Notes under the pieces: model-generated
Databases searched by the model: none
What the model saw: only the letters and a program-made list of their open reading frames with translations
What the model was told of the DNA's origin: nothing
Sequence record: PV660448
Origin: Escherichia phage LF82-4
Direction: 5' to 3' (one strand)
Length of the DNA stretch: 64,000 bases
In this document: positions 23,853 to 40,656 of the stretch, in pieces
Layout of the letters: every line of letters starts with the position of its first letter
Numbering within the stretch: the first letter of the stretch is position 1
Position numbers and translations under genes: made by a program

Positions 23853-23882
23853 CAAAAAAGCCCCAACCTTTCGGAAGGGGCT
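23853..23882 (-). terminator. intrinsic terminator (repeated 24-nt hairpin, copy 1)
   Basis: AGCCCCAACCTTTCGGAAGGGGCT with GNRA-type loop, followed on minus strand by UUUUUU. Confidence 0.6.
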
Positions 23883-24474: not shown

Positions 24475-24505
24475 TACAAAAAGCCCCAACCTTTCGGAAG
24501 GGGCT
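24475..24505 (-). terminator. intrinsic terminator (repeated 24-nt hairpin, copy 2)
   Basis: Identical 24-nt hairpin directly after rI stop, U tract follows. Confidence 0.6.
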
Positions 24506-39087: not shown

Positions 39088-39117
39088 CCAAAAAGCCCCA
39101 ACCTTTCGGAAGGGGCT
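39088..39117 (-). terminator. intrinsic terminator (repeated 24-nt hairpin, copy 3)
   Basis: Identical 24-nt hairpin at 3-prime end of tRNA-like RNA region, U tract follows. Confidence 0.6.
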
Positions 39118-39119
39118 AA

Positions 39120-39430
39120 GCCTTGCGGCAACCTTGTCGGGGTTTCCACCTACTAGGTAAGTGTTTGTACGAAACGCCGGGATTCGAACCCGGTTATTAA
39201 GCAGTTGACGCTACTCAATATTTTTAAAAGGCCATATCTCGACCATATCCGAACGTTCCGTCAAAAACGCTACTCGGCTTACGGCAAAGATATTTCCTCG
39301 AATCGATAATTCTGTGCGCCGTTTCTGCTGTGATGTAAGGGGATATTAACGAATCATAAAGATTTATTAAGACCAGTCCTTACTCAGGGAACATCAGTCC
39401 GACGACTTACCGGTAGCGACCCGGCTTCTT
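39120..39430 (-). ncRNA. non-coding, tRNA-like RNA region (possible remnant tRNA or T4 species-1/2-type stable RNA)
   Basis: About 310 nt with no ORF; minus strand contains canonical T-arm CCGGGTTCGAATCCCGG followed by CGTTTCG that pairs with upstream CGGAACG, but the intervening 58 nt do not fold into a standard D/anticodon arm; followed by a hairpin terminator. Confidence 0.3.
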
Positions 39431-39773
39431 ATTTTGGCATATCATCAATTTGCTCTCGACGCCGACGCCATAGATTAATCGCTTCATAAACACATTCAGC
39501 ATTTGGTATATGGCGACAATAGTATAGTGATTCGCGTTTCTGGAACCGATGTTGCAATGGGATTTCGTTTAAAAGGTCTTTACGGTCAAAGTATTCAAAA
39601 CTAGTTAACCCGGAACGGTTTTTAAGAAACTTCCAATGGCCAAATTCATTTTGGAAATAAACGTAATCAGCGTGTTGATATAATGAATTAATCAACCGGT
39701 CGGAAATAACTGTATCCTGTTCGTTAAAATAAAACGTTAAATCATGAACTACCAGATAAATATTGCCTTTCAT
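39429..39773 (-). CDS. hypothetical protein
   Basis: 114 aa ORF between segB-like gene and RNA region. Confidence 0.45.
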   Translation of the reverse strand: MKGNIYLVVHDLTFYFNEQDTVISDRLINSLYQHADYVYFQNEFGHWKFLKNRSGLTSFEYFDRKDLLNEIPLQHRFQKRESLYYCRHIPNAECVYEAINLWRRRREQIDDMPK

Positions 39774-39780
39774 ATTTTCC

Positions 39781-40449
39781 TCACTTAAATTTTAGTTTAT
39801 AGCCTTTAATCCAACCTTCCGGAATAGGATCGGTTTTCTTAATTTTCTTAGATTTCTTTTCTTCTAATGAATGAATCCACATAGTACCAAACTGGGAATT
39901 TTTCTCGCCTTGTTGGTGTTTGTTCCTGGCGTGGGTATCTTTCATTTTAGCAATAGTTTCGGAAGTATGATTTTTATTTAAAAACGACTTAGTGCTAGAG
40001 AATTTTTCTCTGTATTCAGGTAAAGTCCACAGATGCTTTAATTTCTCTGAACCCATTTTACGATATTTTTCTTGAAGCACTTCATCAGAATCAAATCTCT
40101 CTTTAAAAGCTTTGGCTCCTTTAATAGAGGCTTCTTTCTTTTTATAATTAAATTCGTAAGTATTTAAATGGTCCCAACCACCTTCGCCACCAAGTTTTAA
40201 ATTATATACGTCAGAACGATTCAAAAATTCTTCGTTTACGATATTTTTCTCGGCTTCAAACATCTGCTCTTTAGTGTCAAAGAATTCTAAAATTTCTTTA
40301 TTAAAATTTTCTATACCATACTTGTCTTGGGCTCTTTTTAATAATTTACCAGAACCCATATATCCATCATCTAAATTTTCGGTAGAATGAGCGCCTATAT
40401 AGATTTTATTATTAATTTTATTTGTTATTTTATAAGTGTAATGGAACAT
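39781..40449 (-). CDS. segB: GIY-YIG homing endonuclease (SegB-like)
   Basis: N-terminus HYTYKITNKINNKIYIGAHS is a canonical GIY-YIG motif; 222 aa; sits between tRNA genes as T4 segB does. Confidence 0.75.
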   Translation of the reverse strand: MFHYTYKITNKINNKIYIGAHSTENLDDGYMGSGKLLKRAQDKYGIENFNKEILEFFDTKEQMFEAEKNIVNEEFLNRSDVYNLKLGGEGGWDHLNTYEFNYKKKEASIKGAKAFKERFDSDEVLQEKYRKMGSEKLKHLWTLPEYREKFSSTKSFLNKNHTSETIAKMKDTHARNKHQQGEKNSQFGTMWIHSLEEKKSKKIKKTDPIPEGWIKGYKLKFK

Positions 40450-40490
40450 AAATATCTCCTATTTCTAAGAGTATTTATGTTCCCAAAATA

Positions 40491-40562
40491 TGGCCCTGGC
40501 TGGTTTCGATCCAGCTACCTATCAGTTATGAGCTGACAGCTCTCCCATTGAGCTACAGGGCC
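40491..40562 (-). tRNA. tRNA with CAU anticodon (elongator Met or lysidine-modified Ile)
   Basis: Minus strand 72 nt folds as a cloverleaf: acceptor GGCCCTG/CAGGGCC, D stem GCTC/GAGC, anticodon stem GTCAG/CTGAT with loop CTCATAA, T stem GCTGG/CCAGC with loop ATCGAAA, discriminator A; no encoded CCA. Confidence 0.85.
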
Positions 40563-40656
40563 TTAATAACTTTCTATTATGAAAGGCACTTTAGAGCACC
40601 TTTGGTAATAGAGGGTAGATTAATAATAACACATAATTCTTAAAGCAAATTACGTT

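Follow-up and report, generated by a model that had tools for sequence, protein, structure and literature searches.

Bacteriophage T4 carries, at the distal end of its transfer RNA (tRNA) operon, the genes of two small stable RNAs, rnaC (species 1 RNA) and rnaD (species 2 RNA), which have been known since the 1970s. Both T4 transcripts, RNAC and RNAD, belong to the late RNAs and have been confirmed by Northern blotting (PMC9697503). A middle promoter located just 5' of the T4 tRNA cluster gives rise to a precursor of approximately 1.75 kilobases (kb), which contains the tRNAs, the homing endonuclease gene segB and the species I and II RNAs and terminates after the species I RNA; the processing of this common precursor has been discussed as a means to limit segB expression (PMC2330249). 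Downstream of segB, the T4 reference record lists tRNA-Arg, rnaD (71053-71171) and rnaC (70908-71046). Here, we describe the corresponding locus of Escherichia phage LF82-4 (sequence record PV660448), of which a stretch of 64,000 nucleotides (nt), referred to below as the window, was analysed. The region of interest, 39120-39430, is separated from the nearest tRNA gene by a segB-like gene. We assign it, with a probability of approximately 0.9 for identity and anatomy taken jointly, to the orthologues of T4 rnaD and rnaC, arranged in the T4 order. The pair is a further copy of an element that was already known.

Identity and distribution of the two RNA genes

The assignment was based on a three-way alignment of the window with the T4 tRNA-Arg/rnaD/rnaC segment and rnaC of phage ATK47, in which positions 39432-39168 of the minus strand matched T4 rnaD and rnaC base for base. 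The rnaC sequences of the window and T4 were identical at 137 of 139 positions (98.6%), with two substitutions only. For rnaD, 103 of 121 aligned columns were identical (85%), the core segments being the same in both phages and the differences confined to the apical hairpin. A spacer of 6 nt (GAAUUA) separates the two RNAs. As in T4, rnaC is the last gene of the tRNA operon and is immediately preceded by rnaD, and it has the length and predicted fold of its T4 counterpart. In the ATK47 record, the homologous stretch carries the label 'rnaC, small stable RNA, species 1 RNA'. The ends of both RNAs in the window were transferred from the T4 annotation. Further differences from T4 concern rnaD: the apical hairpin in the window is of the Mosigvirus type, the gene is preceded by the stop codon of an open reading frame (ORF) instead of tRNA-Arg, and its 3' end reads ...GCGCACA in comparison to ...GCGCACC(A) in T4, the CCA encoded by T4 not being conserved and ACAG being present in the window. 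The initial annotation of the window had described a single tRNA-like RNA region of 310 nt and had listed a T4 species 1 or 2 RNA among its candidate identities. The alignment to T4 rnaC and rnaD settled the identity in favour of that candidate, and the single RNA was replaced by two, of 120 nt and 139 nt, and a 3' trailer.

By megablast, the genome harbouring the element belongs to Mosigvirus (RB69-like T-even coliphages), with p000v (96.8%) and ATK47 as the best matches. A total of 801 phage records matched the region, and several of them annotate rnaC or rnaD there. Most of the deposited T-even genomes show coding sequences (CDSs) for a 'hypothetical protein', or nothing, over rnaC and rnaD; the few records that label these RNAs are those of T4, RB68, ATK47, GiZh, Kha5h, RB3 and RB7. 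When the whole window was searched with Rfam at gathering thresholds, only the tRNA with anticodon CAU, tRNA(CAU), passed, and no family covered rnaC or rnaD between 39000 and 39500 at E values up to 10. Pattern scans for rnaC and rnaD returned no matches in 185,579 bacterial and archaeal genomes (one per species), indicating no cellular homologues in this set.

Homologues of rnaC were found within the tRNA arrays of Karamvirus (between tRNA-Trp and tRNA-Gly), Gelderlandvirus, Tegunavirus, Kanagawavirus, Mosugukvirus, Moonvirus and Klebsiella phages, as well as in metagenomic contigs. The rnaD-like sequences occurred in Tequatrovirus, Mosigvirus, Dhakavirus, Moonvirus and Klebsiella phages, and directly followed a tRNA in T4, ESCO47, A7_1 and Moon. 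The rV5-like Vequintavirinae A7_1 (locus positions 807-907) and UPEC06 also carry, directly after tRNA(CAU), an rnaD-like RNA in which the conserved core is complete. Since only about five rV5-like records, all outside Straboviridae, contain it, rnaD was probably acquired there by horizontal transfer. Each of the two RNAs can be present without the other, and without segB or ORF150c.

The many CDSs deposited over this region in GenBank, together with open frames of up to 46 codons across rnaC, would fit a region that encodes small proteins. The longest frame, however, switches strand and reading frame among the homologues, the length differences (138-141 nt for rnaC, 99-122 nt for rnaD) are not multiples of three and the substitutions are pairwise compensatory rather than codon-periodic. 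We consider a coding function extremely improbable. In agreement with the initial annotation, which had reported no ORF in 39120-39430, only mechanical ORFs of 31-40 amino acids (aa) touched the region.

Conserved structures of rnaC and rnaD

The minimum free energy (MFE) of rnaC was -50.2 kcal/mol (z = -4.55), and none of the 200 shuffled sequences was as good. Nine divergent rnaC sequences (57-87% identical to that of the window), folded independently, all gave the same MFE architecture. Covariation was evaluated in a set of 29 distinct sequences representing at least eight phage genera, with the RNA length kept at 138-141 nt across homologues. The fold was paired in 94% of cells, versus 35-50% when the 3' partners were slid by 1-3 columns. 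Compensatory changes were present in 31 of the 47 pairs, a level reached by none of 500 shuffles. A covariance model built from this alignment (R1) scored rnaC of the window at 158.5 bits over model positions 1-140, with the family at 110-159 bits and tRNAs at no more than 24 bits, and found exactly one copy in the window.

The 5' and 3' ends of rnaC pair with each other in a terminal stem of 7 base pairs (bp), whose 3' strand directly follows the T-arm, as in tRNA, giving a helix of 7+5 = 12 bp. Pair 4:138 was G-C in 15 sequences and A-U in 13. The stem contained a tandem U.U in 26 of the 29 sequences and was fully Watson-Crick in phiR1-RT (CAGUCCG/CGGACUG) and PM2. Between the terminal strands, a 3-bp AGG/CCU helix closes an irregular long arm of approximately 60 nt, next to which lie an A/U-rich linker and a 10-bp hairpin. 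In this fold, rnaC mimics only the upper half of a tRNA: in place of a D-arm and an anticodon arm, it has the long arm and the 10-bp hairpin.

The perfect T-arm recognised in the initial annotation is part of this structure (Table 1). The acceptor-like pairing proposed alongside it, CGGAACG with CGTTTCG, fared differently: both sequences are present on the minus strand (39254-39260 and 39170-39176), but they do not form the pairing kept by evolution. This alternative was paired in 85.7% of cells, but it showed only a single double change, and one of its pairs was broken in 13 cells. In the conserved fold, CGUUUCG is paired with CGAUUCG at the 5' end of rnaC; CGGAACG, for its part, lies within the apical hairpin of the long arm. 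A G3:U70 alanine identity as in transfer-messenger RNA (tmRNA), suspected under the CGGAACG pairing, was likewise rejected, as the conserved partner gives A-U or G-C at this position.

The apical loop of the long arm and the loop of the 10-bp hairpin are complementary (UUGACG/CGUCAA), forming six contiguous pairs that were 99.4% paired over the 29 sequences. Two of these positions co-varied, from A-U to G-C in the kv_tblp5 clade (UUGGCG/CGCCAA) and from C-G to U-A in the phiR1-RT clade (UUGAUG/CAUCAA), and the only substitutions observed in either loop were compensating ones. We propose that the two loops form a kissing-loop contact, a reading suggested by the comparison of the sequences.

The single-stranded linker of rnaC (39224-39230, minus strand) reads CUUUUAA in the window, and CUUUGAA, CUUCUAA or CUCAUAA in other genera. 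CUUUUAA is also found as the anticodon loop of Escherichia coli tRNA-Lys(UUU), the target of PrrC. The likeness is probably due to chance, because the linker is not conserved in other genera.

The likeness of rnaC to the upper half of a tRNA raises two further alternatives. The initial annotation had considered a decayed tRNA, which would here be a pseudogene left after the insertion of segB. The perfect T-arm, the acceptor-like stem and a weak tRNA-Sec-like alignment could be cited in its favour, as could the loss of a real tRNA-Arg from the locus. That tRNA-Arg was removed by a clean deletion elsewhere, at the junction of segB and ORF150c. Moreover, the length of 138-141 nt and all helices are retained, with 31 compensatory pairs, across at least eight genera, which indicates purifying selection and not decay, and the T4 orthologue is an abundant stable RNA (PMC9697503). 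Recent transfers of one sequence are not suggested by the homologues either, given an identity of only 57-87%. We regard a decayed tRNA as hardly conceivable. A standard tRNA that had been overlooked in the initial manual folding was not detected either: the lack of a proper D-arm or anticodon arm was borne out by ARAGORN and Rfam, neither of which found a standard tRNA in 39100-39440, and the best sub-threshold match in the region was tRNA-Sec, with 16.6 bits versus a gathering score of 47 (E = 1.6).

Alternatively, rnaC could be a chargeable tRNA-like molecule that enters translation, i.e., a tmRNA-like RNA or an unusual class II or suppressor tRNA. Its 7+5 bp acceptor/T-arm geometry, its canonical T-loop UUCGAAU and the 10-bp hairpin, which sits at the position of a long variable arm, would be in line with this assumption. 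ARAGORN, in contrast, found neither a tRNA nor a tmRNA, and the best tmRNA_permuted match (10.1 bits) covered the T-arm alone. The molecule also has no anticodon arm, tag ORF or encoded CCA (UACAAA follows the stem), and its position 3:70 is A-U or G-C under the conserved pairing, not G.U. A role of this kind appears very improbable.

The MFE of rnaD was -33.6 kcal/mol (z = -2.36). The RNA consists of a hairpin at the 5' end, a stem formed over a long range, unpaired segments that do not vary and an apical hairpin that can be exchanged freely. Four of its segments are near-invariant, namely AAGUCGUCG, (C)UGAUGUUCCCUG, AUCACAGC and GAAACGGCGCA. The apical hairpin differs wholly in sequence and length among lineages, and the total length varies from 99 to 122 nt. 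The 5' hairpin co-varied (A-U/G-C at 8:24), and one compensatory change was found in the long-range stem GUCGUCG/CGGCGC. Alignment columns 40 (U/A, in CUGAU) and 110 (A/U, in CAGCA) partly co-varied: A40 was always accompanied by U110, in two lineages, and both columns are left unpaired by the nested model. Two resemblances to known motifs were dismissed. A hammerhead-like core (CUGAUG...GAAAC, GUC) had no room for stem I, its A9 was not conserved and no Rfam match was obtained; a ZTP/pfl-like resemblance (GGGUCG...GACUG) had no Rfam support.

A published evolution experiment bears on the apical hairpin of rnaD. In lines of phage BW-1 adapted to E. coli ECOR34, a single convergent single-nucleotide polymorphism (SNP) was the only mutation fixed in three lines, and the relative virulence on this host rose from 0.17 to 0.98; no drastic change of fold due to the SNP was reported in that study (PMC12685909). 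We mapped the SNP (OR125554.1, position 164264) to the apical hairpin of rnaD, where it is an A to G change on the RNA strand. The hairpin sequence CACAG-UUUUA-CUAUG thereby becomes CACAG-UUUUA-CUGUG, which restores a C-G pair of the natural relatives. The predicted MFE structure is a non-family fold (-25.9 kcal/mol) before the change and the family fold (-31.0 kcal/mol) after it. The SNP provides indirect evidence that the structure of rnaD matters on some hosts and hints at a host-specific role.

Operon context, SegB and the tRNA genes

Every feature of the tRNA/segB/rnaD/rnaC locus reads on the minus strand (Table 1), a point not mentioned in the initial annotation. The locus is the distal part of the T-even tRNA operon, in which a candidate middle promoter is followed by tRNA(CAU), segB, the RB69ORF150c-like ORF, rnaD, rnaC, a hairpin and a terminator. 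This gene order agrees with those of T4, G8 and ATK47. The upstream part of the operon differs, with eight tRNAs in T4 and one tRNA and an extra ORF in the window.

Table 1. Positions of the features of the rnaD/rnaC locus in the window, with the basis of each assignment.
Feature	Position	Strand	Basis and remarks
Candidate MotA-type (T4 middle) promoter	40623..40649	-	TTTGCTTTA (40649-40641), 12-nt spacer, TATTAT (40628-40623); read from the sequence
tRNA, anticodon CAU	40491..40562	-	ARAGORN; Rfam tRNA
segB orthologue, GIY-YIG homing endonuclease, 222 aa	39781..40449	-	BLASTP, Pfam, PHROG
RB69ORF150c-like gene, 114 aa	39429..39773	-	phrog_3355 (unknown function) at 1.9e-50; ATK47 orthologue named RB69ORF150c
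rnaD, species 2 RNA orthologue, approximately 120 nt	39313..39432	-	Aligns to T4 71053-71171; ends from T4 annotation
rnaC, species 1 RNA orthologue, 139 nt	39168..39306	-	Aligns to T4 70908-71046; covariance model R1
rnaC acceptor-like stem, 5' strand CGAUUCG (nt 2-8)	39299..39305	-	Pairs with CGUUUCG, 39170-39176 (nt 131-137), with a tandem U.U mismatch; covariation
rnaC long-arm apical-loop segment UUGACG	39259..39264	-	Complementary to CGUCAA at 39205-39210; overlaps CGGAACG (39254-39260)
rnaC 10-bp hairpin, conserved loop CGUCAA (39205-39210)	39195..39220	-	Compensatory changes in 8/10 pairs
rnaC T-arm CCGGG-UUCGAAU-CCCGG	39177..39193	-	CCGGGTTCGAATCCCGG; 2/5 pairs co-vary
Hairpin CACUUAC-CUA-GUAGGUG directly 3' of rnaC	39147..39163	-	Fold and T4 comparison
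Intrinsic-terminator-like hairpin and U-run, operon end	39090..39117	-	AGCCCCTTCCGAAAGGTTGGGGCTTTTT; copy search and fold

The TTTGCTTTA-12 nt-TATTAT arrangement upstream of the tRNA resembles a MotA-dependent middle promoter, according to the MotA-box consensus, and a MotA-type promoter may be located there. The sequence search revealed no perfect copy of the late promoter TATAAATA near the locus. At the opposite end, the repeated hairpin terminator described in the initial annotation was recovered: AGCCCCTTCCGAAAGGTTGGGGCTTTTT is present in the window in three identical 28-nt copies (23855-23882, 24478-24505 and 39090-39117), all on the minus strand, with none expected by chance. The copy at 39090-39117 was missed by a strict terminator scan because of its internal U.U loop. 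In the G8 record, too, the locus is annotated with two terminators of identical sequence. The layout of the locus in the window, with a hairpin terminator at its end, fits the single-precursor operon of T4 (PMC2330249). The hairpin directly 3' of rnaC is conserved, with a compensatory A-U/G-C change in its T4 version (CACUUGC...GCAGGUG), and is probably part of the precursor trailer. The RB69ORF150c-like protein had no Pfam match, and the TAA stop of its ORF overlaps the homology-inferred 5' end of rnaD.

The presence of a SegB-like endonuclease in the tRNA locus, as initially annotated, was supported by BLASTP, with 169 of 221 residues identical to T4 SegB over the full length (76%, E = 2e-128), and by matches to Pfam GIY-YIG (PF01541, 1.3e-6) and phrog_314 'homing endonuclease' (1e-49). 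The gene is free-standing, between tRNA(CAU) and rnaD/rnaC. When compared with T4 and G8, it occupies the same place directly downstream of tRNA(CAU) and has the same 5' untranslated region. In T4 and G8, segB is followed by tRNA-Arg, whereas in the window this tRNA is deleted and the segB stop abuts the ribosome-binding site of ORF150c. The core of the SegB recognition site, GGTTCRANTCC, is a T-arm motif (PMC2330249). Its sole match in the 64-kb window was the T-arm of rnaC (39180-39190, minus strand; motif search), so the rnaC DNA is a potential SegB target or co-conversion marker. The T-arm of tRNA(CAU), GGATCGAAACC, deviates from this core motif, like that of T4 tRNA-Ile.

ARAGORN identified a single tRNA (anticodon CAT) in the whole window, which corresponds to the canonical 72-nt tRNA(CAU) of the initial annotation, and the Rfam tRNA model matched it over its full length with 62.4 bits (gathering score 29, E = 3.8e-11). 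The tools label it as tRNA-Met. Its position is that of T4 tRNA-Ile(CAU), of which it is the positional orthologue, and the acceptor stem GGCCCUG and the D-arm are common to this T4 gene, which is annotated as tRNA-Ile and likewise has the DNA anticodon CAT. The tRNA contains C4:G69 and C5:G68, presumably the TilS determinants for lysidine formation. From its sequence, tRNA(CAU) is probably a lysidine-modified tRNA-Ile2 that reads AUA, rather than a tRNA-Met. In T4, G8 and ATK47, a tRNA-Arg(UCU) gene separates segB (or tRNA-Met) from the gene that follows; in the window and in p000v, it is cleanly deleted. At the junction (39774-39781), where the segB TAA abuts the RB69ORF150c-like ribosome-binding site, there is a short TAA/TTA microhomology. 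It is a matter of speculation that SegB-induced breakage and repair caused this deletion.

Processing, possible function and comparison with known RNAs

By analogy with T4, the locus would be transcribed into one precursor carrying the tRNA, segB, rnaD and rnaC. Because the two RNAs occupy tRNA arrays at tRNA-like spacing and are part of a single precursor in T4, we infer that rnaD and rnaC would be cut out of the tRNA/segB precursor by the tRNA-processing enzymes of the host. RNase P might act at the 7+5-bp acceptor/T-arm minihelix of rnaC, and RNase E and 3' exonucleases elsewhere. Once released, both RNAs would persist thanks to their compact folds.

Beyond processing, the mature RNAs might act in trans, as mimics or decoys directed at a host factor that handles tRNA and varies among strains, e.g., a defence nuclease that targets tRNA or an enzyme of tRNA processing or modification. 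This proposal is speculative, and we consider it rather improbable. Its more specific form, in which both RNAs of the tRNA clusters are trans-acting anti-host RNAs that titrate or misdirect the host factor, rnaC as a rigid upper-half mimic locked by the kissing loops and rnaD as a structured RNA whose integrity influences phage growth on particular E. coli strains, must be called doubtful. If true, an anti-host role would explain why rnaC and rnaD are carried along with tRNAs and SegB throughout Tevenvirinae and as far as the rV5-like phages. SegB-linked tRNA loci have been documented as anti-defence loci (PMC13096335).

The main rival to a role in trans is a module that works only in cis, the RNAs acting as spacers for processing, as stability elements or as protection of the 3' end of the precursor and remaining as stable by-products due to their tight folding. 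This is a real possibility, without being the probable explanation. In every case, both RNAs lie within tRNA precursors at a spacing like that of tRNAs, the limitation of segB expression by precursor processing has been discussed (PMC2330249) and no function is reported in the literature consulted (PMC3014915, PMC9697503). On the other hand, the unpaired loops and junctions are invariant across genera (CGUCAA/UUGACG in rnaC, AUGUUCCCUG and AUCACAGC in rnaD), and the co-varying loop-loop pairs of rnaC suggest selection beyond that for a generic stable hairpin. The occurrence of rnaC and rnaD independently of each other and of segB/ORF150c, and the restoration of the rnaD structure by the adaptive BW-1 SNP, also speak against a module confined to cis.

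Several points weigh against the proposed anatomy of rnaD and rnaC and against their role in trans. The two discrete stable RNAs from 39168-39432 (minus strand) of this phage are predicted with ends that rest on the T4 annotation, and the 5' end of rnaD may differ, since it is preceded in the window by an ORF and not by a tRNA. The loop-loop complementarity of rnaC could instead reflect an alternative secondary structure. With two U.U mismatches in 26 of the 29 sequences and no encoded CCA, recognition of rnaC by RNase P or the CCA enzyme is not guaranteed. For rnaD, double changes were found in only 4 of the 21 tested pairs and the RNAalifold signal was weak, the core being too conserved for covariation. 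The BW-1 SNP could act via neighbouring genes or transcript stability and not via rnaD. T4 phages with deletions of the tRNA region grow on laboratory hosts, so any function in trans would be conditional. Finally, the biological roles of RNAC and RNAD were stated as unknown in 2010 and 2022 (PMC3014915, PMC9697503), and likewise in 2025.

The identified element is textbook T4 biology in an RB69-like relative and is not news in itself; its interest lies in the function of the species 1 and 2 RNAs. The handles for addressing this function are the covariation-backed fold of rnaC with its loop contact, the map of invariant unpaired positions in rnaD and the restoration of the rnaD pair in BW-1. 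Should rnaC and rnaD turn out to act in host interaction or anti-defence, they would rank beside the phage tRNAs as countermeasures at the RNA level.

Among other RNAs, rnaC resembles in concept the tRNA-like domains of tmRNA, of bacterial Y RNAs (YrlA) and of the viral tRNA-like structures (TLS), in which an acceptor/T-arm mimic is likewise joined to a non-tRNA body. No Rfam match to the tmRNA, YrlA or viral TLS families was obtained at E values up to 10 beyond the bare T-arm, and rnaC differs from these RNAs in having no mRNA-like ORF or pseudoknot ring. In comparison to a canonical tRNA, rnaC is 139 nt long, lacks a D-arm, an anticodon arm and an encoded or conserved CCA, contains the tandem U.U and fails the tRNA models; the genomic sequence following its stem is UACAAA, and the T4 annotation ends in ...CGUA. 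What rnaC has in common with a canonical tRNA is the 7-bp acceptor-like stem continuous with a 5-bp T-stem, the T-loop UUCGAAU, the location in a tRNA array and, probably, the processing enzymes.

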